A stretch of DNA of 64,000 nucleotides from an uncultured delta proteobacterium (GTDB taxonomy: Bacteria; Desulfobacterota; Binatia; UBA9968): contig CAWDPO010000003.1 in NCBI GenBank assembly GCA_963804165.1, forward strand, positions 32,001 through 96,000, given 5' to 3'. The translations under genes were made by a program, and so were the position numbers. The notes beneath the pieces were generated by a model that saw only the letters and a program-made list of their open reading frames with translations, had not been told where the DNA came from and searched no databases. Below, piece after piece: positions 5,620 through 64,000 of this stretch (within the stretch, counting starts at the first letter, position 1; every line of letters begins with the position of its first letter).

Positions 5620-6723
5620 GTGATTATGGACGGTAAGCAAGAATTCGAAAGACGGATAGTTCGTGTGCGCGAAGCCATGCGCGACAAAGGCTTGCAAGCT
5701 TTGCTGGTTTACGATTCAGGGCGGCATAATTTTTTGCGCATGAATTATGTCGCTTATCTGACGGACTTTATCAGCGTCGGACCGGAAACGCTGGTCGTCC
5801 TTCCTTTGGAAGATGCGCCGGTGCTCTATCTCTCGCCCGTTTGGGATATACCGCGGGCGCAGGAAGAATCATGGGTGTCCGACGTTCGTCCGTTCAACCA
5901 GCTCTGGTCGCGGCTGCCGAATCTGACGGGCAAAACCGGACTCATCGGCCGGGAAGCGATGCACGTCAATTTGCACGACGAAATTACCAAATCCCTCGGA
6001 CAAACTCCGGTCAACGCCAAGGACATCATCGAGAACATGGCACGCTGCAAAAGCGATTTCGAACTCGCTCGGCTGCGGCGCGCGGCTGGGATCGCCGACG
6101 CCGGTGTTACGGCGCTTCACGAAGACGCGCATCCGGGCTTGAGAGAGTACGAACTCGCCGCGATCGTCGAATACCGCATGCGCTCGCTCGGCGCCGAGGA
6201 CAATTTCGGCATGGTCGTTGCCAACCATCATAACCAGGCGCTTCATCCCGCAACCGACCGGATCGTGCAATCGGGCGATATCATCATCGGCGAGATCACG
6301 CCGTGCATCGGTGGATTGTTCGTACAAATCTGCCGGACGATGGTGCTGGGCGAGCCGGCGCCGGCGGTCCACGAAAAATACGCCATTCTCAAAAAGGGAA
6401 TGCGACTTGGCATGGATTCGGCGAAAACCGGCGCGCCGGCGAGCGAAGTCGCCGCGGCGATCAACGGCACATTCATCGAGTCAGGCTACGAAAAATATTG
6501 CCGGCCGCCGTTCATGCGCGTGCGCGGTCATGGCCTCGGCTGCGGTTCGTTCGCGCCCGGAAGCTTGGAAGACGGCAACCAGACTAAACTCGAAGAGGGC
6601 ATGACGTTCATCATTCACCCCAATCAGTATCTTCCGGAGACCGGCTATTTAACCCTGGGTGACACGGTAGTGATGACGAAAACGAAAGCGGAATCGCTGA
6701 TGAATTCGTCATGGGATATCTAA
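5620..6723 (+). CDS. M24 (Xaa-Pro peptidase/creatinase fold) protein with non-canonical metal ligands
   Basis: Creatinase-N-like N-terminus, KSDFEL, ICRT, GHGLG, EEGMTF. Confidence 0.8.
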   Translation: MIMDGKQEFERRIVRVREAMRDKGLQALLVYDSGRHNFLRMNYVAYLTDFISVGPETLVVLPLEDAPVLYLSPVWDIPRAQEESWVSDVRPFNQLWSRLPNLTGKTGLIGREAMHVNLHDEITKSLGQTPVNAKDIIENMARCKSDFELARLRRAAGIADAGVTALHEDAHPGLREYELAAIVEYRMRSLGAEDNFGMVVANHHNQALHPATDRIVQSGDIIIGEITPCIGGLFVQICRTMVLGEPAPAVHEKYAILKKGMRLGMDSAKTGAPASEVAAAINGTFIESGYEKYCRPPFMRVRGHGLGCGSFAPGSLEDGNQTKLEEGMTFIIHPNQYLPETGYLTLGDTVVMTKTKAESLMNSSWDI

Positions 6724-6740
6724 TTAAAGATTGAGACGTT

Positions 6741-6830
6741 ATGAATTTAACAGCTGGAACGATTGGAACGGCTGAAACCACTGGAACTTTTTTGTTCCAA
6801 ACGTTCCACTAATTCCAAACGTTTCAAAAG
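6741..6830. repeat. Short-unit (TGGAAC/GTTCCA) imperfect hairpin array
   Basis: ctggaacgattggaacggctgaaaccactggaact followed by gttccaaacgttccactaattccaaacgtttcaaa. Confidence 0.55.
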
Positions 6831-6855
6831 GTTTCGGGCGCAGCAAGGTGATTAT

Positions 6856-8017
6856 ATGATATTTGGTCGCCATTCCGTTCTGAAAAGAGGTTGTTCTACT
6901 TGGGACCCCGAGCAAGTGCCGCAAGCGGAGTTTCAGGTGCGTCTCGACGCCGTGCGCAAGGAGATGGCGCGGCGCGAATTCGACGCGCTGGTGATTTACG
7001 GCGACAATTATTCGTTCGCGGATCTTTGTTATCTTACCAATTATTTTCCCAAAGTGCGCGGCGGCATCGCGGTGGTGCCGCGCGGCGGCGCGATTTCGCT
7101 TCTGCTCAATATTGGTAGCCGCGACGTGCCGTTCGCGAAGACGTTGACTTGGGTCGAGGACGTGCGCGCGTCGAACCAAGTCGGCGCCGACGGCGCGAAA
7201 CTGCTCAAAGAAAAGGGATTGGAGAAAGCGACGATCGGCCTAATGGATTCCGGCCTCGGTTTTCCGCTGCCGCAGTTGGAAGAAATGAAGGGCGCGTTGC
7301 CGAACGTGAACTGGCAAGCTTGCGATGCGATGATCGTGCCGCAGCGTTTGGTAAAGACTGTGCGGGAGCTCGACGCGATGCGGGAAGCGGGCCGGTTGCT
7401 GCACGAGATCTGCAAAGAAGCGGAGAAATTCATCAAACCCGGAAGAAAAGAATACGAGATTGTCGCCGACATCGATCGGCTCGCGCGCGACAAGGGCGCC
7501 GAGGATATTCGTATTCTCGCAGGCGAACGGCGCTTGAATCCGCCGAGCTTCAAGCAGTCGGCAAATCTTGGCAATCACTGGGCGGTTTACTTGGCGGTGC
7601 AGCACGAACGTTATTGGGCCGAGGCGGGCCGGACTTTTATTTTGTCGGGGGATACGAAGCTGCAAGACGCCTACGGGAAAGCGCAAGAGCTCGTTGCTCA
7701 GATGGCGGGACAGCTCAAACCCGGCGGCGTGGTGGCGGCGATCGATGTGACCGCGCGCCGCGCGCTCGGAGAGTTCTACGCCACCGCATCGATCTACGGC
7801 CTCGCCAACGGCATCGGTCTCAATCAATGGGAAGCGCCGTTTTTGAATGAAAACGACGCCCGTCAAGTCGGTGCCGCGTCGGTGGGCGCGACGATTTTGA
7901 ACGAGAACATGACGCTGGCGCTGCGCGTGACGTTTGAGTCCGAAGGGAAGATTGATTTTGTTCGGCGACAGTTTCCAAGTGACGGCTAGCGGGGCGCGGT
8001 CGTTGCTCAGTGATTAA
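6856..8017 (+). CDS. Second M24/creatinase-fold protein, degenerate active site; frameshift near 7950
   Basis: KTVRELDAMR, GRKEYEI, AGRT, NGIGL. The other frame continues LILFGDSFQVTASGARSLLSD* to 8017. Confidence 0.7.
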
Positions 8018-55695: not shown

Positions 55696-56721
55696 ATGAA
55701 TGATCTCCTATCAGCACGTTGGAGCACGATCGTCCTGGCTGTACTCTGGTCGATCATGATGGCATGGAATTCCCAGAGCGCGGAACAAACACTTACCGCG
55801 AAGCCGGAAAAAACCCGCCTGGAAGTCGGCACGGCGGGCTCGGGCACCACGAGTCTGCCGCTCTTCGTTGCCCTCGAAGCCGGCTACTTTGCCAAGCGGG
55901 GTCTTAACGTCACGGTCAATCAAGTCGGCGCGACCATCGCGGTCCAGGGCGTTATTTCGGGAACCATCGATATTTATCAGGGCGGCACCGCCGCCATCGC
56001 GGCGAATTTGGCCGGCGCGGATATTATTTACGTCGCGGCGGCGGTGGACAAGAACTCGCTCAACTTGTTCGGACAAAAGGGAATCACCTCTTTCGAGAGC
56101 TTGCGCGGCAAATCGATCGCGACTACGTTTCCCGGCGCCTTCGGCGAAATCGCGATTCGCATGAGCGCCCGCAAACAAGGCATGGAGGTCGGCAAAGATT
56201 TGAAACTGCTCTATCATCGCTCGCCACCGGAGGCGCTCTCGACCTTTTTCTTGGGCAATGCCGATGCTCTCGTCATCACTCCACCGCAAACCGAGCTGGC
56301 CAAACAGCAGGGCTATCCAATCATTATCGACTACTACAAAGAAGGATTAAAAATCGTCGGTCCGGGCACTTCGGTGACGCGCGAGTTTTTACAAAAGCAT
56401 CCGAATACGATCAAGGCGTTTCTCATGAGTTATCTCGATGGTGTGAAAAGGGCCGTTGACGATGAAGAATTCGCCAAGAAGATCGAGTCGAAGTACACCA
56501 AGATTTCCGACCCTAAAATCTTGTCTGAAAACTACCAGCAAGGATTGCGGGTGTGGAACAAGGACATGACCGTGGATCCGGCGGCGATCCGGGTGGTATT
56601 GGATGAATCGTCGGATGCCAAGGCGAAAAGCGCCGACGCAAAGAAGTTTTACGACAATACTCTCATTCAGGCGGTCAACCGCGACTATGCGTCGAAGCTG
56701 TTTCCGGGGGAAGTAAAGTAA
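55696..56721 (+). CDS. ABC substrate-binding protein (NMT1/SsuA-like)
   Basis: Signal peptide, GYFAKRGLNV, LRGKSIA. Confidence 0.85.
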   Translation: MNDLLSARWSTIVLAVLWSIMMAWNSQSAEQTLTAKPEKTRLEVGTAGSGTTSLPLFVALEAGYFAKRGLNVTVNQVGATIAVQGVISGTIDIYQGGTAAIAANLAGADIIYVAAAVDKNSLNLFGQKGITSFESLRGKSIATTFPGAFGEIAIRMSARKQGMEVGKDLKLLYHRSPPEALSTFFLGNADALVITPPQTELAKQQGYPIIIDYYKEGLKIVGPGTSVTREFLQKHPNTIKAFLMSYLDGVKRAVDDEEFAKKIESKYTKISDPKILSENYQQGLRVWNKDMTVDPAAIRVVLDESSDAKAKSADAKKFYDNTLIQAVNRDYASKLFPGEVK

Positions 56722-56845
56722 ATCATAAGACGTGAGGGTGAAGGTAAGGCGTAAGGCGCAGGAAGCGCTTCACGGTCTCAAATCGTCGGCTCGGAAAGAC
56801 AAACGGGTTGATGAGAAAACTAGACTAGGTCAAACGGCGAGAAAT

Positions 56846-57511
56846 TTAGTGATGTCCCGGGCTTTCCCATACGGCCATAGCGGCGCGGCAGCACAGAACG
56901 TCTTGCTCCGGGCGGGTCGCGCCGGCGACGCCGATGGCGCCGACGATGGTGACGCCGTTGAGAATCGGCACCGCGCCGCTCACGGCCATCATCCGTCCGT
57001 GATGGGAAACCATCAGACTGCGCAGCCACGGTTGGCGCGCCTGCTGCGCCAGCTCCGCGGTCGGCACATGGAGTGCGGCGGCGGTGTAGGCTTTGTTGAA
57101 GGCTAGCTCCGTCGATCTCGGTTCCGCTTTGTCCATTTTTCCCACGGCAATGGGTGCGCCGGCTTCGTCGACGACAGCGGCGCTGACCGCGATGCCAAAC
57201 AGCTGCGCGTAATCCTGGGCGGCATGAATCATCTCCCACGCTATGTCGAATGGCACCGGTCCGACCGCTGCTTTGTTCTTGCGGAAGAAGGCTGCGTTTA
57301 CTTCGATCGATGGAACGTGCTCGGCGGGGATATCGATATCTTTGAAGATCGCGTCCACCGGGCAAACGATCTCGCATTGCTCGCAATCGATACAGACTTC
57401 AGGATCGATGTAGAACTGCGGCGCGCCGGGCGTAGTGTGAATGCACGCGACCGGGCAAACTTCGACGCAGGCGCCGTCGTTGGTGCACAGGCTGGTGATG
57501 ATGTACGGCAT
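56846..57511 (-). CDS. Ferredoxin (FdxA-like dicluster)-GlcG/HbpS fusion protein
   Basis: N-terminal CTNDGACVEVCPVAC and CIDCEQCEIVCP; C-terminal AVVDEAG, AFNKAYTAA, GAVP, VGAIGVAG..PEQD. Confidence 0.85.
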   Translation of the reverse strand: MPYIITSLCTNDGACVEVCPVACIHTTPGAPQFYIDPEVCIDCEQCEIVCPVDAIFKDIDIPAEHVPSIEVNAAFFRKNKAAVGPVPFDIAWEMIHAAQDYAQLFGIAVSAAVVDEAGAPIAVGKMDKAEPRSTELAFNKAYTAAALHVPTAELAQQARQPWLRSLMVSHHGRMMAVSGAVPILNGVTIVGAIGVAGATRPEQDVLCCRAAMAVWESPGHH

Positions 57512-57534
57512 TCAAATGTCTCCCAGAATAAATG

Positions 57535-57648
57535 AGTTCAAGGTTCAAGTTCCAGCCCCCACCTCTTTCCTCCCCCGCGTCGCGGGGGAGGATGAAGGAG
57601 GGGGATTGAACAGAGCGGAGCGGTTGAACGGCTTGAACATTTTGAACT
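57535..57648. repeat. Composite repeat (GTTCAA/TTGAAC units around a CTCCCCCGC..GCGGGGGAG hairpin)
   Basis: Read directly; lies inside the operon between two genes. Confidence 0.6.
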
Positions 57649-57656
57649 CTCTTCAG

Positions 57657-58241
57657 TTAGCCGTCCGCCGCGAGCGGCAAATCGGTGCGGATTACGTTGG
57701 CCACGTGAGCGTTGGCGCCAAACCGTGGCGTTACCAATCTTCCTTCTTTATCCAGCGTGCCGAGACCGGCTCTGGCGGCCAACTTTTCAGCATCCGCGTC
57801 CGGAGCGGCGGTAGCACGATAACCCAGCTCCCTGATCCACGCGCTCAGCACGAAGCTGATGAAAAGCCCTTTTTGCACCGGCACCTGGCCGCCGATGCCT
57901 GGTGATTCGCGTGGATCGTAATCGGCATGCACCGCGCAAATGACCGCAAACGGATAGAATTCACCGTTGCGTGTATCTTCGGGAGTCAGTCTGGCGATGC
58001 CCGTCATCTCGGCGCCGAAGTACTCCGCCATTCCTTTTAGATGACCCGAGGTGATCTCGGGGGTGTGCAGCTCGGTTTTCGTTGGAAAAACGTTGCCCTC
58101 GGGGGCGTTGCGGATCATCTCGGTGACCGTATTCGCGAGATCCGCGGCGGGTGTTTTGATGAAAAAATCCCAGTAGGGATCGTCCTTGTGAGAGTTTTTC
58201 CCGAGCCAGGGTAACTTGAGCGGACCAAGTCGCAAGGCCAC
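57657..58241 (-). CDS. Short reductive-dehalogenase/QueG-like protein lacking the Fe-S domain
   Basis: LKGMAEYFGAEMTGIA, RELGYRA, AGLG...VTPRFG, TDLPLAADG*; GTG start overlaps the upstream TAG. Confidence 0.72.
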   Translation of the reverse strand: MALRLGPLKLPWLGKNSHKDDPYWDFFIKTPAADLANTVTEMIRNAPEGNVFPTKTELHTPEITSGHLKGMAEYFGAEMTGIARLTPEDTRNGEFYPFAVICAVHADYDPRESPGIGGQVPVQKGLFISFVLSAWIRELGYRATAAPDADAEKLAARAGLGTLDKEGRLVTPRFGANAHVANVIRTDLPLAADG

Positions 58242-59581
58242 TAGGCGTCCCGTTTGACGAATCGATTCGTGTTCTCTTTGAGCGGCGCGTAGTAGCCGAC
58301 ATTTCCCGTGACGGCGCTTGCCGCACTCTTCTCGTGCGAGGCGTTACAGCCGGCGACGGTGCAAGCGTGCTCACCCGGCTTGACGCCGGAGTCGTAGCCG
58401 AGCCAGGTGACGCGGGCATTGCGCACGACGCCCCAGAAGCGGTCGTCGATCCATTTGAGAAAACGCACCAACGCCGGACGCGCGAAGTAAGGAAAAGCAT
58501 GAAGCATCGACACCGTCATCGTGTGCCACCAGACATTCGGTTTGGTAAACGGGCAGACGGTGGCGCAGGTGAGGCAGCTGCCCCAATGTTCGTGCACGTA
58601 CGGTCTGAGCTTGTAGCAAGTGAGCCAATTGATCTTGTATTTTTCGATACCGTTGAAGACCACCTTGTCGCCGAACGGAATGCTGTTGGTCGGACAAGTG
58701 TTGGCGCATTTGCGGCAAATTTTGCAAAAGTCATCGACGCCGATATCCACCGGCTCGTCTGCGACCAGCGGCAGGTCGGTTAAGATAGGGTCGGGCATAT
58801 GAATGCGGGCGCCGAAATTTTTGTTAATCACCAGTCCATTTCTGCCCAATTCGCCGATGCCTCCGGCCACGCCCGCCGCCTGCGGAGTCACTACGCCGCG
58901 GAGCGCCGTGTAGCCCAGTTCTTTGATGTAGCCTTCGAGCGCCTTCAGCACCATCACGCCTTTCATTTGCGACACGTGGTACGCGGCGTCGCCGATCTGA
59001 TGGCGGTGTGCCTGAAGTTTGTTGTAGTCCCACGCGGTCGTCGCTTGGATGACATAGGGAAACTTCCGCGCCAGATCTTCCGGCGAATTGCTTTGGAAGT
59101 CGTCCTTCGCCGTGCCGTCCTGGACGTAGCGGCCTCCGCCGGCGGCATAAAGATAAGAAGGGTGCGTCTTGGCGATGCCGACGACATCGGCTCCCATATA
59201 GAGGGCGACGGCTTTGATGTGGCGCGCCATCGCCGCGGGATCGTCCACCGCGACTTTTTGCGAATTGACTTTGCCGTTGCTCGACCGATTGATTACGTTG
59301 GTCAGAAAATGTCTGCGATCGGCGAAGTGGTTGGGAGCCGAGACGCGGGTCAAGGGATCTTTGGAGACGGTGTTGCGATACCAGTTGAACAGCGGTTTGC
59401 CGAGCTCGCCGCGCTGATTTTTCGGATGCGGCGACTGGTTCATGTCGACGTTGACATGCTCACCGACGATTTTGACCGACCGCCCAAGGTAAGGCGTCGG
59501 AAATTCTTCGCCGGCGTGTCCGCCGTTGGTGCCCGTAATTTCGCTGGGCTGTTGCGCTTTCTTCTCAACTGTCAGGGCCAT
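58241..59581 (-). CDS. Reductive dehalogenase-like (RdhA/QueG superfamily) cobalamin-[4Fe-4S]2 protein, no Tat signal
   Basis: IKAVALYMGADVVGIA, ELGY.A, GIGELGRNGLVI...FG, TDLPL..D.P.D.G, FCKICRKCANTCP, C..CLTCATVCPF, DDRFWG. Confidence 0.85.
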   Translation of the reverse strand: MALTVEKKAQQPSEITGTNGGHAGEEFPTPYLGRSVKIVGEHVNVDMNQSPHPKNQRGELGKPLFNWYRNTVSKDPLTRVSAPNHFADRRHFLTNVINRSSNGKVNSQKVAVDDPAAMARHIKAVALYMGADVVGIAKTHPSYLYAAGGGRYVQDGTAKDDFQSNSPEDLARKFPYVIQATTAWDYNKLQAHRHQIGDAAYHVSQMKGVMVLKALEGYIKELGYTALRGVVTPQAAGVAGGIGELGRNGLVINKNFGARIHMPDPILTDLPLVADEPVDIGVDDFCKICRKCANTCPTNSIPFGDKVVFNGIEKYKINWLTCYKLRPYVHEHWGSCLTCATVCPFTKPNVWWHTMTVSMLHAFPYFARPALVRFLKWIDDRFWGVVRNARVTWLGYDSGVKPGEHACTVAGCNASHEKSAASAVTGNVGYYAPLKENTNRFVKRDA

Positions 59582-59641
59582 AACACACTCCTTTTTAGAT
59601 CGGTGCGTAATCGGCTGTTCAATGGTTCAAGCCAAATAATG

Positions 59642-60040
59642 TCATGAATACGACGCCAGCGCCACTTCGGCACACTTCTGATCTTGATCGTCGGTGCCGC
59701 CCGCTACGGCAATGGCGCCGACGACGTTGCCGCCTTCGACGATCGGCAAGGCGCCGCCGCCGGGCATTATACGCCCGTTGCTGGACACCACCAGACTCTG
59801 AAACCAGGTCTGCGCCGCGACACCGGCCAACTCGTTCGTCGGTTGTTGAAAACTGGCCGCGGTGTAGGCCTTGTTGAGCGCTATTTCGACGGTGATCGGG
59901 CGCGCTTTGTCCATGCGGCCTAAAGCTATCATGCGGCCGCTCTGATCCACGACTACGGCGGTCACGGCAATATCAAGTTGGGCCGCCTGCCCGTGCGCGT
60001 TTCGAACCATCTGAATCGCCTTTTCTCCAGGGATAGCCAT
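59642..60040 (-). CDS. GlcG/HbpS (heme/corrinoid-binding, PduO-C-like) protein
   Basis: VVVDQSG, RMD, ALNKAYTAA, GGGALPI, VGAIAVAGGTDDQD. Confidence 0.88.
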   Translation of the reverse strand: MAIPGEKAIQMVRNAHGQAAQLDIAVTAVVVDQSGRMIALGRMDKARPITVEIALNKAYTAASFQQPTNELAGVAAQTWFQSLVVSSNGRIMPGGGALPIVEGGNVVGAIAVAGGTDDQDQKCAEVALASYS

Positions 60041-60258
60041 TGTCTTGTGCGATCCTCCTCGTTGCTAAGTCAGTTTCTTAGTGTATCAGAGAAGTGGGAT
60101 GAGCAGTCAAGACCTATCTTCGCTGGTGTGATCATGGATTCCGTCATCCATTCGCACTGGCCGGTGCTTCCCTGTTAGCATTGCAAGCCAGACCAAGATG
60201 TCGGGCGCCCAGTAGCTGTGGCATCTCGTGACAATAGGGCGCCCAAAGGGAGGTTATT

Positions 60259-60744
60259 GTGTATCTGCGTACGGTGATTATCGTGTCGGTACTCGGGATT
60301 CTTGTCATGTTCGCTCTTTTGAACTGGAACGCCTTTACCACGGCAATGCCCCTTTCCGTGGGATTTACCACAGTGGAAGCGCCGCTCGGGCTGTTCTTGC
60401 TCGCAGTTATCGCGCTACTCACGGTGCTGTTTCTTATTTATGTTGTTTATTTGCAGTCCTCGACGTTGGTCGAAAGCCGGCGTCAAACACGCGAGCTGCA
60501 GGTCCAACGCGAACTTGCCCAAAATGCGGAAGCATCGCGCTTCCATCAATTGAAGATCGCCGTGGAAACCGCGCTGCGCGAGCAGAACAACCAAACGCTC
60601 GAATTTAAAAACACCGTTCTCGCGCGCCTCGAAGAGCTCGAGCGCGATTTGCGTTCGACGGTGGAGCAGTCGGGCAATTCAATCGCCGCCTATCTCGGTG
60701 AAATCGAAGATCAGTTCAAACGCGTCGCCGGCGGAAATAAATAG
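60259..60744 (+). CDS. LapA-domain-like membrane protein with coiled coil
   Basis: FALLNW..., APLGLFLL, two TM helices then heptads; GGAGG RBS. Confidence 0.65.
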   Translation: MYLRTVIIVSVLGILVMFALLNWNAFTTAMPLSVGFTTVEAPLGLFLLAVIALLTVLFLIYVVYLQSSTLVESRRQTRELQVQRELAQNAEASRFHQLKIAVETALREQNNQTLEFKNTVLARLEELERDLRSTVEQSGNSIAAYLGEIEDQFKRVAGGNK

Positions 60745-60849
60745 ATTTCATTGCGGCGACTTTCGACGGTTAAGACGATGCGCGAAACCCCGCGTCATGC
60801 TTCGCTAAAATTTTACGTTCCAGTATTGGTCTATTGTGCTAATTTGTAT

Positions 60850-61010
60850 GGCGTCCAAAAGTAGTTTTGTAGAGTCCAAACAGTGGCAGCAGCTGAAAGG
60901 GGACTTTTCTCCATGCGATTCTCACCCCTCTTTCTTTGCCAAAGAAGGGAAGGGGAGATTTTAGGGCAGAATGTCGCGGCAATTCCATAGCGAACTTTAG
61001 GGACAGGGGA
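60850..61010. repeat. Degenerate copy of the CTAG MITE
   Basis: tgcgattctcacccctc...tttgccaaagaagggaaggggagatt...gcgaactttagggacagg resembles 32730-32830. Confidence 0.6.
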
Positions 61011-61043
61011 AGCAACAACGTCGACGTGAGCCGGTAATTTTTC

Positions 61044-61778
61044 ATGAACAGACTCCAAGATCAGGTCGCGATCATAACCGGCGGCAGCCGGGGAATCGGC
61101 CGCGCGGTCGCGCGGGCATTTGCCCGCGAAGGGGCACGGGTGGCGATTGCCGCGGTGGAGGATCGCAATGAACTTGAAACCGCGCGCAGGGAAATCGCAG
61201 ATCTAGGCGGCGACGTTGTTGCGACGTTGGCCGACGTGGCGCGCCGCGGCGACGTCGATCGGATGGTTCAAGCGGTCGTCGCCAAGTGGGGGAGCATCGA
61301 TGTTCTAGTCAACAACGCCGGGATCCTTCGCCTGGCGCCATTGGAACAGATTTCCGAAGAGAGGTGGGACGAGACTGTCGCCGTGCATCTGAAGGGTACG
61401 TTTAACTGTACCCAAGCGGTGTTGCCGTTCATGAAACAACAGCGCAAAGGCAAGATTATTAACATCGCGGCGCCGTCGGCGCTGCGCGGCTCGTACGGCG
61501 TGGCCGACTACGCCGCCGCCAAAGGCGGCATTATTGCGTTTACCCGCAACGCCGCCAACGAATTAAAATCCTACAACATTCAAGTCAACTGCATCTCGCC
61601 GACGGCGAATACGCGTATGACCGAGGCGTTGACCCAGTTTCGCCGCGAGCAACTCGGTGTCGCGCGGCGCGAGCGAGCCTTCGTCGCGCCCGAAGCGATC
61701 GCGCCGGCATTTATCTTCTTTGCCAGCTCCGACTCCGACTATGTTTCCGGCCAATTGCTGGAAGTGGGACGAATATGA
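61044..61778 (+). CDS. Short-chain dehydrogenase/reductase
   Basis: TGGSRGIG, NNAG, YAAAK. Confidence 0.92.
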   Translation: MNRLQDQVAIITGGSRGIGRAVARAFAREGARVAIAAVEDRNELETARREIADLGGDVVATLADVARRGDVDRMVQAVVAKWGSIDVLVNNAGILRLAPLEQISEERWDETVAVHLKGTFNCTQAVLPFMKQQRKGKIINIAAPSALRGSYGVADYAAAKGGIIAFTRNAANELKSYNIQVNCISPTANTRMTEALTQFRREQLGVARRERAFVAPEAIAPAFIFFASSDSDYVSGQLLEVGRI

Positions 61779-61829
61779 ACTGAAATCACGGACCGGCGAC
61801 GGAGTCGGAGGAACGTCCGGTCACGCGAT

Positions 61830-63095
61830 TTAGTTTTTTGCGCTCACTCGCCACACTTTGCCGGCGCCGTCGTCGGCGACGAGCAACGACCCGTCCGTCC
61901 ACTCCGCCACGCCTACCGGACGGCCATAGACTTGGCTGGCTTTCTGGTTGGCGATAAATCCCGTGAGAAAATCTTCGAGAGGGCCGCTCGGCTTGCCGTT
62001 TTGAAAAGGGACGAAGGCAACTTTGTAACCCACCAGATCGGAACGGTTCCACGAACCGTGCATGCCGATGAAGGCGCCGCCGTGATAGCGCGCCGGAAAT
62101 GATTTTCCCCGGTAGAAAGCCAAACCGAGCGGCGCCACGTGGGAGCCCAAAGCAAAATCTGGTTTGATCGTCTTGGCGACGAGATCGGGGCGCTGGCCTT
62201 TCTTGCGCGGGTCTTCGTTCTGGCCGAAATAGGCGTAGGGCCAGCCGTAAAAAGCGCCGTCGCGGACGCTCGTTAGATAGTCGGGTACGAGCTCGTCACC
62301 GAGCATGTCGCGCTCGTTGACGATCGTCCATAAAGTATTCGTCCGCGGTTCCCAGTCCATACCGACGGGATTGCGCATGCCGGCGGCGAAAACTCGCATG
62401 CCGCTGCCGTCCGGACTGACTTGCAGAATAGCGGCGCGGCGCGGGTCCTTTTCATCGACACGCTGCTCGTCGACGTTGGTCGCCGAGCCGACCGCGATGT
62501 AAATTTTCTTGCCCGAGGGATCCACGAGCACGTTTCTCGTGTAGTGGCCGCCTCCGGGCAGATCGAGGACCTTTTCGGGCTGCCGTTTAATCTGCGTATC
62601 GCCGGCGCGGTAAGGAAACACGACGAGTTCGTCCGTATTGCCGACGTAGAAGCGATTGCCGATGAGCGCCATGCCAAAGGCCATGTTCAACCGGCGCAGG
62701 AAAGACTGCCGCAGGTTGGGTTTGCCGCTTTTCGTGGTATCGCGCAGCAACACGATGCGGCTGGGAGATTGTTGCGGCAGCGATTGCATGACCAAGACAT
62801 CGCCGTTCGGCAGGACGTAGATCATCCGTGGATTGTCCAATTCGTCGGCAAAGAGGCTGACCTCAAAGTTTCCGGGGGCTATCGGCGTCTTTCCCTTCGG
62901 CCAGGGAATCACCGTAGCCGGATTCGCCACCGCGCGCGTCGCGTTGGGGGGCGGCAGCACCAACTGCTCCGACGGGCCGGTCTCGATGACCTGGCGGGAC
63001 GCCGGTTCGGCCGCGAAGAGCCGCGGCGATGAGCGAGAAGGATGATTAACCGCAAAGAACGCCAAGGTCGCAAAAACGACAGGAAAAATTTTCAT
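61830..63095 (-). CDS. Sorbosone dehydrogenase family (beta-propeller) protein
   Basis: PNGDVLV, VGNTD, GHYTRN, GMRNPVG, VNERD.LGD.LVPDY, YGWPY, HGSWNR, GRPVGV. Confidence 0.88.
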   Translation of the reverse strand: MKIFPVVFATLAFFAVNHPSRSSPRLFAAEPASRQVIETGPSEQLVLPPPNATRAVANPATVIPWPKGKTPIAPGNFEVSLFADELDNPRMIYVLPNGDVLVMQSLPQQSPSRIVLLRDTTKSGKPNLRQSFLRRLNMAFGMALIGNRFYVGNTDELVVFPYRAGDTQIKRQPEKVLDLPGGGHYTRNVLVDPSGKKIYIAVGSATNVDEQRVDEKDPRRAAILQVSPDGSGMRVFAAGMRNPVGMDWEPRTNTLWTIVNERDMLGDELVPDYLTSVRDGAFYGWPYAYFGQNEDPRKKGQRPDLVAKTIKPDFALGSHVAPLGLAFYRGKSFPARYHGGAFIGMHGSWNRSDLVGYKVAFVPFQNGKPSGPLEDFLTGFIANQKASQVYGRPVGVAEWTDGSLLVADDGAGKVWRVSAKN

Positions 63096-63143
63096 GATCT
63101 TGTTTATGCGGTTTCTGCGTCCTTTGCGGCTAAATTTGCATTG

Positions 63144-64000
63144 TTATTTCTTCGCGGTGACGCGCCAGATCTTGCCGCCGCTGTCATCGGCGACTAGAAG
63201 AGAGCCGTCGGACGCGACGGTTACGCCCACCGGACGGCCATAGGCTTCGAACTTGCTCTCATCGGCGATGAAACCGGTGAGGATATCTTCCAGCGGACCG
63301 GTGGGCTTGCCGTTTTCAAAACGGAGGAAAGCAACTTTAAAGCCGACCATCTTTGACCGGTTCCACGAGCCATGCATGCCGATGAATGCGCCGCCGCGAT
63401 ATTTCTCGGGAAATGCCTTGCCCTGGTAAAAGGCCAGACCGAGGGCGGCTACGTGGGAGCCGAGAGCGTAGTCTGGTTTGACCGCTTTGGCGACCAGGTC
63501 CGGCCGCTGGCCTTTCTTGCGCGGATCCTCGATCTGGCCGAAGTATGAATACGGCCAGCCGTAGAAGGCGCTGTCTTTTACGCTCGTCAAATAATCGGGA
63601 ACCAAATCGTCGCCGAGAAGGTCGCGCTCATTGACCACGGTCCACAGAGTCTTGGTACGCGGCTCCCAGTCCATGCCGACGGCGTTGCGCAGCCCCTTGG
63701 CGAATATTCTCATGCCGCTGCCGTCGGGATTGATCTCTAAGATTCCGGCGCGCCGCTGATCTTTCTCCCAGCCGTTTTCCTCGTCCACATTGGACGCGGA
63801 GCCGACCGCGACGTAGATTTTCTTTCCCGCCGCATCGGCGAGAAGGTTACGCGTGTAGTGGCCGCCGGCAGGAAGGTCGAGAATCTTCTCACCCTTGCCG
63901 TCAATTTTCGTTTGGCCGGCTTTGTACGGATAGCGAACCACGCCGTCGGTGTTGCCCACATAAAACCAGTTTCCGAGCGCCGCCATGCCGTGCGGCATAT
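63144..64000 (-). CDS. Sorbosone dehydrogenase family protein, tandem paralogue (5' end outside window)
   Basis: Same motifs as the adjacent gene. Confidence 0.88.
   Translation of the reverse strand, partial: MPHGMAALGNWFYVGNTDGVVRYPYKAGQTKIDGKGEKILDLPAGGHYTRNLLADAAGKKIYVAVGSASNVDEENGWEKDQRRAGILEINPDGSGMRIFAKGLRNAVGMDWEPRTKTLWTVVNERDLLGDDLVPDYLTSVKDSAFYGWPYSYFGQIEDPRKKGQRPDLVAKAVKPDYALGSHVAALGLAFYQGKAFPEKYRGGAFIGMHGSWNRSKMVGFKVAFLRFENGKPTGPLEDILTGFIADESKFEAYGRPVGVTVASDGSLLVADDSGGKIWRVTAKK

Follow-up and report, generated by a model that had tools for sequence, protein, structure and literature searches.

A conserved gene module that joins a reductive-dehalogenase-like protein to a cluster-less paralogue and a ferredoxin–GlcG fusion

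The closest described relatives of the system considered here are the reductive dehalogenases of the RdhA family. PceA (structures 4uqu and 8q4h), a respiratory RdhA that works with RdhB, has a twin-arginine translocation (Tat) signal, an RdhB anchor, a homodimeric structure and the residue pair Y246/R305. NpRdhA of Nitratireductor pacificus (4ras, 6zxu–6zy1), a representative of the "truncated" catabolic type, is cytoplasmic, lacks both a Tat signal and RdhB, combines a corrinoid core with two [4Fe-4S] clusters and needs an external ferredoxin. Its single chain of 700 amino acids includes an N-terminally fused second copy of the core; in catabolic RdhAs this vestigial duplicate cannot bind cobalamin and mimics the dimer interface of PceA (PMC10463259). 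The ferredoxin system of NpRdhA itself could not be rebuilt in vitro, a non-cognate spinach system being used instead (PMC10463259). A "simplified cytosolic" type of RdhA-like protein, short and free of a fused vestigial domain, has been reported from Desulfobacterota and Chloroflexota (PMC12219181), and QueG, also cytoplasmic, belongs to the same superfamily and likewise uses B12 and two [4Fe-4S] clusters. Here we describe a four-gene operon in a stretch of 64,000 nucleotides (hereafter the window) of contig CAWDPO010000003.1 from an uncultured member of the Binatia. Its products are a stand-alone GlcG/HbpS-like protein (GlcG1), an RdhA-like protein of 446 amino acids, a shorter paralogue of the RdhA core (RdhS) and a fusion of a ferredoxin to a GlcG domain (FdGlcG). 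We lean slightly towards the view that they form a soluble, heteromeric corrinoid/Fe-S reductase of the RdhA branch, in which the vestigial subunit is supplied in trans and the ferredoxin is tethered to the enzyme.

The four genes lie on the minus strand (Table 1), in the order and orientation given in a first-pass annotation of the window, and their domains were recovered with Pfam and NCBIfam. The stop codon (TAG) of the RdhA-like gene and the start codon (GTG) of rdhS overlap by one nucleotide (TAGTG). The genes on either side of the operon, for an NMT1-type binding protein downstream and a membrane/coiled-coil protein of 161 amino acids upstream, are on the opposite strand; thus the transcription unit consists of the four genes. 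Neither the N-terminus of the RdhA-like protein nor its family consensus has a twin-arginine or RRxFLK-like motif, the module contains neither a gene similar to rdhB nor any small membrane protein that is conserved, and none of the four proteins has a C-terminal PDOR-type NAD(P)H reductase domain in Pfam or NCBIfam. The Tat signal, RdhB anchor, homodimer and Y246/R305 pair of PceA were not found here, although the fold, the cluster motifs and the size of the catalytic chain are similar. From NpRdhA the operon differs in that the second core is a separate protein encoded downstream rather than an N-terminal domain. These features, together with the conservation of the genes as a module of their own, bear out the suggestion of the first-pass annotation that the system is distinct both from respiratory rdhAB and from the self-sufficient catabolic RdhAs.

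Table 1. Features of the operon, in window coordinates
Feature	Position	Strand	Basis
GlcG1, stand-alone GlcG/HbpS-like protein (DUF336), 132 amino acids	59642–60040	minus	Open reading frame list and PF03928
RdhA-like putative catalytic subunit, 446 amino acids	58241–59581	minus	Similarity to TIGR02486, profile matches in the PDB, Foldseek
RdhS, cluster-less paralogue of the RdhA core, 194 amino acids, no Fe-S domain	57657–58241	minus	Matches to NpRdhA domains
FdGlcG, ferredoxin–GlcG fusion, 221 amino acids	56846–57511	minus	Fer4 families and PF03928
Ferredoxin domain of FdGlcG, about residues 1–80	57272–57511	minus	7Fe-type cysteine pattern
GlcG/HbpS-like domain of FdGlcG, about residues 86–216	56864–57256	minus	PF03928 at residues 89–212
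GC-rich hairpin within the 145-nucleotide RdhS–FdGlcG spacer (57512–57656)	57545–57616	minus	Folding
Operon leader	60041–60110	minus	GAGGAGG ribosome-binding site of GlcG1 at 60054–60060

To place the operon among its relatives we collected 70 loci in a scan of species-representative genomes, searched the open reading frames (ORFs) of each with the four window proteins, and counted synteny only in loci with enough contig room. By a division of our own, type 1 comprises 46 loci (RdhA-like protein at 700 bits or more against the window protein, plus four truncated loci assigned by hand) and type 2 comprises 24, with RdhA-like proteins 50–59% identical to that of the window; all type-2 entries are titled Chloroflexota, Dehalococcoidia or SAR202 except one (L051, "uncultured bacterium"). 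RdhS followed the RdhA-like gene in 41 of 41 type-1 and 23 of 23 type-2 loci, and FdGlcG lay downstream in 34 of 35 and 23 of 23, respectively. In the sole type-1 exception (L017), an 80%-identical FdGlcG is encoded on a different contig of the same genome. The gap between the RdhA-like gene and rdhS, with start codons picked by script, was −4 to +5 nucleotides in 63 of 68 loci. GlcG1, by comparison, stood upstream of the RdhA-like gene in every type-1 locus that could be scored (41/41) and in no type-2 locus (0/23). The conserved unit is therefore the triad RdhA–RdhS–FdGlcG, and the stand-alone GlcG1 is an addition in one clade. The multi-gene order seen in the first-pass annotation does recur, and so is no product of chance, while its picture of an operon bracketed by two GlcG domains applies to the type-1 loci and not to the Chloroflexota-type loci.

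Beyond these three or four genes no further neighbour was conserved across the clades, and no conserved catabolic neighbourhood emerged from clustering of neighbouring ORFs, a crude procedure in which long ORFs on the antisense strand interfered where the GC content was high. Those neighbours that we checked are unrelated between the clades and include a triple-RidA protein, 6-phosphogluconate dehydrogenase, amidohydrolase_2, NMT1-type binding proteins, a glucose/sorbosone dehydrogenase (GSDH) and a polysaccharide deacetylase. The module is also accessory and patchily distributed. RdhS was detected in 0 of 300 further genomes drawn from the phylum of the source genome, in 7 of 151 sampled from the class of genome G301 and in 5 of 151 sampled from the order of genome G304, these absences applying to the genomes searched. 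On the strength of these samples we rejected a housekeeping or core-gene role, which the conservation of the family (at least 50% identity between phyla, unusually high for an RdhA) had prompted us to consider. The 300 genomes without RdhS include the sole other genome of the source genome's family, and the operon of G301 (locus L022) encodes an RdhA-like protein 97% identical to that of the window, in a genome of similar size (7.4 Mb). This similarity, set against the absence in the sample from the source's own phylum, could reflect patchy inheritance, gene transfer or a problem of binning or classification.

The RdhA-like protein itself falls on the RdhA side of the RdhA/QueG superfamily, as judged from several lines of sequence and fold comparison. 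A search of PDB sequences with the single sequence found NpRdhA (1.6e-29), PceA (5.2e-27) and, far behind, QueG (1.1e-09); a family profile gave PceA (3.1e-34), NpRdhA (2.2e-32), a second PceA (8q4h, 1.1e-28) and QueG (5d6s, 6.7e-12). The protein aligns to residues 345–587 of NpRdhA only and so has no fused N-terminal vestigial core. Fer4 families of Pfam match residues 286–345 (Fer4_7, 3.1e-07), a region that holds eight cysteines invariant in 47 sequences (C286, C289, C292, C296, C322, C336, C339 and C343) and arranged as two [4Fe-4S] motifs. An AlphaFold2 (AF2) monomer model reached a mean predicted local distance difference test (pLDDT) value of 59.5 and a predicted template-modelling score of 0.65; the core, residues 110–290, was mostly confident, and confidence was low at 1–24, 47–91 and 386–446. 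With this model Foldseek retrieved NpRdhA (5e-16), PceA (about 1e-15 to 1e-13), QueG (about 4e-07) and MMACHC (4e-03), and the core is accordingly predicted to have the corrinoid-binding, nitroreductase-like fold. Against the hidden Markov models the protein scored 148.1 bits for TIGR02486 (RDH), below the cut-off of 160.35, which a distant family member, P0189, just exceeds at 160.6 bits, so that the family straddles the cut-off. Among 8000 scored candidates, 498 relatives were found at E ≤ 0.001; the best 120 of these are all at least 67% identical, and those that bear names are mostly called "reductive dehalogenase."

These data also bear on the reading that the large protein is a variant of QueG or another tRNA-modifying enzyme, which we consider hardly credible. 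There is some weak similarity to QueG, both in the profile match to 5d6s and in a TIGR00276 score of 58.5 bits, but the cut-off of that model is 200; a genuine QueG (396.8 bits) is encoded on another contig of the source genome, and the operon is sporadic in the sampled genomes (7/151 and 5/151). In a tree of 34 rows, picked by hand from homologue-search hits, the family alignment and the paralogues of the source genome and thus not a systematic sample, the family formed one clade (100/100). Its sister is a small group in which one of the source genome's own paralogues is found (99/91), and it fell within a starred set together with NpRdhA-like sequences (95/99), QueG being a long outgroup. 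The tree therefore agrees with the first-pass expectation that the protein would group away from ordinary QueG; its NpRdhA-like rows were recognised by motif alone, and none of its rows is a named PceA or BhbA. QueG was accordingly rejected as an identity for the protein. The source genome has two further RdhA-like genes. One, 41% identical, appears to be split by a frameshift in the assembly (L077, G000:C45:165000-178000, positions 5802–6960); around it lie a pair of genes that resemble amidohydrolase_2 and one each that resemble cupins and CoA transferases (named by eye from the translations). A third RdhA-like paralogue lies on contig C41.

RdhS is a second, shorter copy of the RdhA core. 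It matched no Pfam family and scored 44.5 bits against TIGR02486. As a single sequence it aligned to the N-terminal domain of NpRdhA (residues 76–219, 21.0 bits) and to the functional core (346–501, 16.5 bits), and as a profile it matched the two almost equally (63–226, 35.0 bits; 344–501, 35.8 bits). Its AF2 model (pLDDT 85.3) retrieved RdhAs first in Foldseek, at a query TM-score (TMq) of about 0.6, followed by QueG, a B12-trafficking protein and nitroreductases, as expected of an RdhA-core fold. A stretch of 12 residues in type-1 RdhS is missing from type-2 RdhS; by our reading its counterpart in the RdhA-like protein is the GELGRNG loop. Near the N-terminus, RdhS residues of about 21–33 are the homologues of residues 62–74 of the RdhA-like protein. 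A search of 1.84 billion representatives with the RdhS profile returned 708 clusters at E ≤ 0.001 and 60 at E ≤ 1e-30; the best matches are mostly stand-alone proteins of 180–215 amino acids, and in the ESM Atlas the nearest clusters consist of unnamed proteins from Binatota and Chloroflexota. Because of this homology, the translational coupling and the invariable adjacency of the two genes, we infer that RdhS pairs with the RdhA-like subunit and supplies in trans the vestigial partner that catabolic RdhAs carry within the same chain. The first-pass annotation had noted a paralogue without Fe-S motifs and had missed its likeness to that fused domain.

FdGlcG is the third member of the triad. 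Its Fer4 matches cover residues 2–56, and the PF03928 domain scores above its threshold (3e-28; 98.8 bits against a gathering cut-off of 25). The nearest NCBIfam model, FdxA_Actino, was matched at 2e-19 and 69.8 bits, below its cut-off of 125. The cysteine pattern of the ferredoxin part, C9-x5-C15-x3-C19-P followed by C40-x2-C43-x2-C46-x3-C50-P, fits a 7Fe type; type-2 proteins have the classical C-x7-C-x3-CP. The fusion is common in metagenomes: 1400 relatives were found at E ≤ 0.001, and the best 120 of them all combine PF03928 with a Fer4-type family, under source names as varied as "ferredoxin," "heme-binding protein" and "ferredoxin--NADP+ reductase."

We modelled the RdhA-like protein, RdhS and FdGlcG as a single three-chain set, scoring FdGlcG as the partner. 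The interaction prediction score from aligned errors (ipSAE) was 0.72 (0.65, 0.76 and 0.72 in the individual runs), a mark that 58 of 80 solved complexes attain, as do 2 of 110 mismatched pairs; this calibration is only rough here, where three chains were modelled with our own alignments of 47 rows. The best of three controls scored 0.00, at least 74% of contacts were common to the runs, and the pLDDT of the partner was at least 84. In the model the cluster loops of the ferredoxin (residues 20–22, 39, 41–45 and 48) meet the Fe-S domain of the RdhA-like protein (297–300, 321, 324–325 and 327–328), and the GlcG domain (101, 148–153, 181–189 and 202–216) meets residues 62–74 and 87 of the RdhA-like protein and residues 50 and 52–54 of RdhS. 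The contact segments hold residues that are invariant or nearly so in both clades (K62, L64, N66 and N70 of the RdhA-like protein; G49 and P53 of RdhS), and residues 47–91 of the RdhA-like protein, disordered or of low confidence in the monomer model, fit a segment that folds upon its partner. FdGlcG is thus predicted to dock on the RdhA-like protein and RdhS together, with its GlcG domain acting in the model mainly as a docking module, and the first-pass suggestion of a dedicated electron-input subunit becomes plausible. We know of no solved complex of an RdhA with a ferredoxin or with a GlcG protein.

Two observations concern the ferredoxin and its tether. The split RdhA-like paralogue of the source genome (L077) is followed not by a fusion but by a stand-alone 7Fe-type ferredoxin of 82 amino acids (7077–7325), without GlcG and without RdhS; by analogy, the ferredoxin looks like a general partner of such enzymes and the GlcG domain like an add-on tether. 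In the window FdGlcG, a nearly invariant Cys-Cys pair (residues 207–208, at about 56888–56893) lies in the last helix of the GlcG domain within the motif QDxLCCRAA, at the predicted contact with Pro53 of RdhS; GlcG1 has one cysteine there.

The active site of the RdhA-like protein departs from that of known RdhAs, a point that the first-pass annotation had missed. In NpRdhA, Y426 is the proton donor and forms a dyad with K488, while K488, R552 and S422 bind the hydroxyl of the substrate, K488Q being inactive, and A419, S422 and M423 line the active site (PMC7565698). In a profile alignment with residues counted by hand, the catalytic-tyrosine column (Y246 of PceA, Y426 of NpRdhA) corresponds to Q205 of the window protein. 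Q205 fell in the same column when 34 diverse RdhA-like sequences were aligned with MAFFT, the canonical members having Gly/Ala-Tyr there. It is Gln in type 1 and Ala, Leu or Gln in type 2. In the window protein, PceA and NpRdhA the column stands, free of insertions or deletions, 18 residues before the glycine of the GY motif, which reads LGY in the window protein, the spacing in PceA and NpRdhA having been counted by hand from alignments. The partner column (R305 of PceA, K488 of NpRdhA) is an invariant H261. Two defining catalytic residues of RdhA are thus absent from their alignment positions in the family. A first alignment by hand had taken Y201 as the equivalent of Y426; the profile and MAFFT alignments overturned that assignment. 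Y201 is itself invariant, one helical turn upstream of the tyrosine column, and is part of an invariant motif, AHRHxIGDxxYH (A191-H-R-H-x-I-G-D-x-x-Y201-H), that covers the stretch of A419, S422 and M423 in NpRdhA, by hand count in a single-sequence alignment. The pocket is therefore predicted to be polar, and because of the Gln at the tyrosine column, the His at the Arg/Lys column and the polar motif, the enzyme may reduce a polar organohalide or a substrate with some other leaving group.

These substitutions weigh most directly on the reading that the operon simply encodes an ordinary catabolic dehalogenase for halogenated phenolics, similar to NpRdhA or BhbA, with its parts distributed over separate genes. 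We find this possible and somewhat doubtful. NpRdhA and PceA are the nearest structures, NpRdhA being the best match both to the single sequence and in Foldseek; the family shares its starred set in the tree with NpRdhA-like sequences; the "simplified cytosolic" type occurs in the same two phyla (PMC12219181); and R552 of NpRdhA, one of the residues that hold the substrate hydroxyl (PMC7565698), aligns to an invariant R326. Yet both members of the catalytic pair are replaced, by Q205 and H261 where NpRdhA has Y426 and K488, and the substitution of K488 by glutamine is enough to abolish NpRdhA activity (PMC7565698). The invariant polar motif, placed by hand count over active-site residues of NpRdhA, the TIGR02486 score under the cut-off and a degree of conservation between phyla that is unusual for an RdhA argue in the same direction. 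A more far-reaching reading, which we regard as unlikely, is that the family represents a third functional branch within the RdhA/QueG superfamily, one that would carry out a corrinoid-dependent reduction other than classical dehalogenation at a site built from the invariant His-Arg-His...Asp...Tyr-His motif, as an obligate heterotrimer or heterotetramer in which a GlcG clamp tethers the 7Fe ferredoxin and possibly handles the corrinoid.

What the GlcG parts do beyond docking is a separate question. GlcG1 is a PF03928 protein (1.3e-28; 100 bits against a gathering cut-off of 25) and is 48% identical to the fused GlcG domain of FdGlcG, a close paralogue. Its nearest solved relatives are OrfY (2a2l, 3.8e-19), NahX (9jth; a literature search on NahX yielded nothing useful), the C-terminal domain of PduO (PduOC; 5cx7, 1.8e-11), EfgA (6bws, 3.9e-09) and HbpS (3fpv, 8.2e-09). 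OrfY, PduOC, EfgA and HbpS are of the same PF03928 (DUF336) family, several members of which are associated with corrinoid enzymes (PMC4923194); the present proteins differ in that one GlcG domain shares its chain with a 7Fe-type ferredoxin and has an RdhA-like enzyme as its predicted binding partner. In agreement with the first-pass annotation, heme is bound by PduOC, with His18 as the ligand, and aquo-cobalamin by HbpS, with a dissociation constant (Kd) of 34 uM (PMC4923194). The GlcG parts might accordingly be tetrapyrrole binders, for cobalamin or heme, that deliver, protect or re-reduce the corrinoid, an idea compatible with a docking role and one that we entertain as a tentative, minority view.

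Several observations fit such a tetrapyrrole function. The nearest solved relatives OrfY and PduOC come from B12 contexts, and a complex of OrfY with the adenosyltransferase OrfW has been proposed (PMC4923194); the nearly invariant Cys-Cys pair of the fused domain is a further point in its favour. The source genome, moreover, suggests a B12 salvager, for which a protein that handles the cofactor would be useful: it has no match to CobD/CbiB or CobS, at 81% completeness, and does have a match to a PduO-type cob(I)alamin adenosyltransferase. Three overlapping open frames share that match (G000:C30:65852-66361), a sign that the gene is frameshifted or that the assembly contains errors. On the other side, His18 of PduOC aligns to Ile9 of GlcG1, which in turn aligns to Trp92 of FdGlcG, so that the heme-binding mode of PduOC is not conserved in either protein; His18 is often replaced in homologues, which may not bind heme (PMC4923194). 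The PF03928 family includes EfgA, a sensor of something other than a tetrapyrrole, and the type-2 operons do without a stand-alone GlcG altogether. The matches to EfgA, a formaldehyde sensor, and to HbpS, a component of a redox sensor with a documented sensing role (PMC4923194), would suit a GlcG domain that senses a small molecule or the redox state and gates electron delivery or activity. We think this improbable: the conserved module contains no gene for a regulator or a kinase, and in the docking model protein contacts occupy much of the surface of the GlcG domain.

In the heteromeric reductase that we favour, the RdhA-like protein would be the catalytic subunit, with a corrinoid-binding core and two [4Fe-4S] clusters. 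RdhS, translationally coupled to it and probably free of cofactor, would pair with the catalytic core and act like the fused vestigial N-terminal domain of NpRdhA-type enzymes or like the second protomer of dimeric PceA. The C-terminal GlcG domain of FdGlcG would keep the 7Fe-type ferredoxin on the complex by clamping the conserved N-terminal segment of the RdhA-like protein and a conserved loop of RdhS, so that the ferredoxin clusters sit beside the Fe-S domain and pass electrons to the corrinoid. In the soil clade GlcG1, added upstream, may bind at a second, pseudo-symmetric site or form a pair with the GlcG domain of FdGlcG, and the reductant of the ferredoxin would be encoded outside the operon.

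A number of points weigh against this scheme. With the canonical catalytic tyrosine missing, the chemistry may differ from the action proposed. The monomer model of the RdhA-like protein is mediocre, and its binding of a corrinoid is argued from homology. The docking model supports binding of FdGlcG and does not show it; because FdGlcG alone was scored as the partner, the interface between the RdhA-like protein and RdhS lies outside that score. Among nine longer matches to RdhS there was no full-length fusion of the two cores, which by the tool's own account is weak evidence; the two closest (403 and 469 amino acids) cover 45% and 33% of RdhS and seem to be products of read-through in gene calling. 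Scans of the ORFs and neighbours revealed no ferredoxin reductase nearby, and, with no match to CobD/CbiB or CobS in the 81%-complete source genome, B12 would have to come from salvage. FdGlcG is also less tightly coupled to the operon than RdhS, the hairpin-bearing spacer before it measuring 88–134 nucleotides in most type-1 loci. Finally, the part that GlcG1 would play in the complex is one that we infer.

The spacer before FdGlcG and the leader of the operon offered few signals that we could name. The window spacer folds strongly (−61.1 kcal/mol, z = −7.3), and in Rfam it gave only sub-threshold matches to miRNA hairpins. A scan for intrinsic terminators found terminator-like sites at chance level and did not call the spacer hairpin. 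Similar hairpins occur elsewhere: among loci L007 to L075, 19 of 43 spacers of at least 50 nucleotides had z ≤ −3 against 30 mononucleotide shuffles each. They are made of short repeated words that differ between loci (GTTCAA, GTTCCA, ATCTCAAAT and others), so that the structure is kept and the sequence is not, and the hairpin may be an element of mRNA stability or processing that sets the ratio of the subunits. In 16 of 62 loci (L007, L010, L023 and L045 among them) the 40 nucleotides that precede the FdGlcG gene contain, close to its start codon, a shared leader motif, CGAGC-n-GCGAGG(AC), that includes the GAGGA ribosome-binding site; the window lacks it. A consensus promoter scan of 56500–60400 returned no promoter, and that of the operon is therefore only putative; TTGACT at 60105–60110 in the leader was spotted by eye. 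An Rfam search found no riboswitch, for B12 or otherwise, upstream of the operon, and the GC content across the operon was unremarkable.

Around the operon, the divergent gene for the membrane/coiled-coil protein (60259–60744) has a weak match to UPF0242 and is present in six loci only. It is followed on the divergent side (60259–63998) by a gene similar to short-chain dehydrogenases/reductases (61044–61778, named by eye from its translation) and by two tandem genes (61830–63095 and 63144–63998), members of whose cluster in other loci match GSDH in Pfam. This upstream order was seen again only in the closest relatives, L011, L025, L045 and L071. On the other side, a protein of 391 amino acids with three RidA/L-PSP domains is encoded on the same strand directly downstream of FdGlcG at L023 (8713–9885) and in the same position in seven more type-1 loci (L007, L021, L025, L026, L045, L046 and L072); it is absent from the window.

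The enzyme class to which the RdhA-like protein belongs is already in print, as the cytosolic, "simplified" RdhA-like type of PMC12219181, and the present family probably belongs to that class or overlaps it. The passages of that paper on the "simplified cytosolic" type mention no partner genes, no trans-encoded vestigial subunit, no ferredoxin–GlcG fusion and no missing tyrosine, and the word "heme" is absent from its main text; its Tables S7 and S18 and Fig. S21 may list these genes, which would bear on the novelty of the operon. In the literature we found no paper that links "reductive dehalogenase" with GlcG, DUF336, HbpS, PF03928 or Binatia. Nor did we find the layout in the literature on SAR202/Dehalococcoidia or on catabolic RdhAs, as represented by main texts, the supplements of which may list the genes. 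In keeping with the first-pass statement that no characterised operon of this kind is known, then, the main texts yielded none, and we have not found described the vestigial subunit encoded in trans, the ferredoxin–GlcG tether or the replaced catalytic pair.

Which donors supply cytosolic RdhA-type enzymes with electrons in the cell is an open problem, for which the operon offers a candidate cognate donor in FdGlcG, genetically fixed beside the enzyme in two phyla and predicted to dock cluster to cluster. RdhS, for its part, suggests that a "vestigial" second core need not be fused, as it is in catabolic RdhAs, and can come as a separate subunit, a form that connects the respiratory architecture, which is dimeric, with the monomeric one of the catabolic enzymes. 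The replacement of the Tyr/Arg-Lys pair means that the annotation "reductive dehalogenase," which these widespread soil and marine genes now bear, may be wrong. Finally, the operon gives the DUF336/GlcG domain, the function of whose family beside B12 enzymes has long been unclear, a role that can be tested; if the family did prove to be a third functional branch of the superfamily, this would be the first defined molecular role of the domain.

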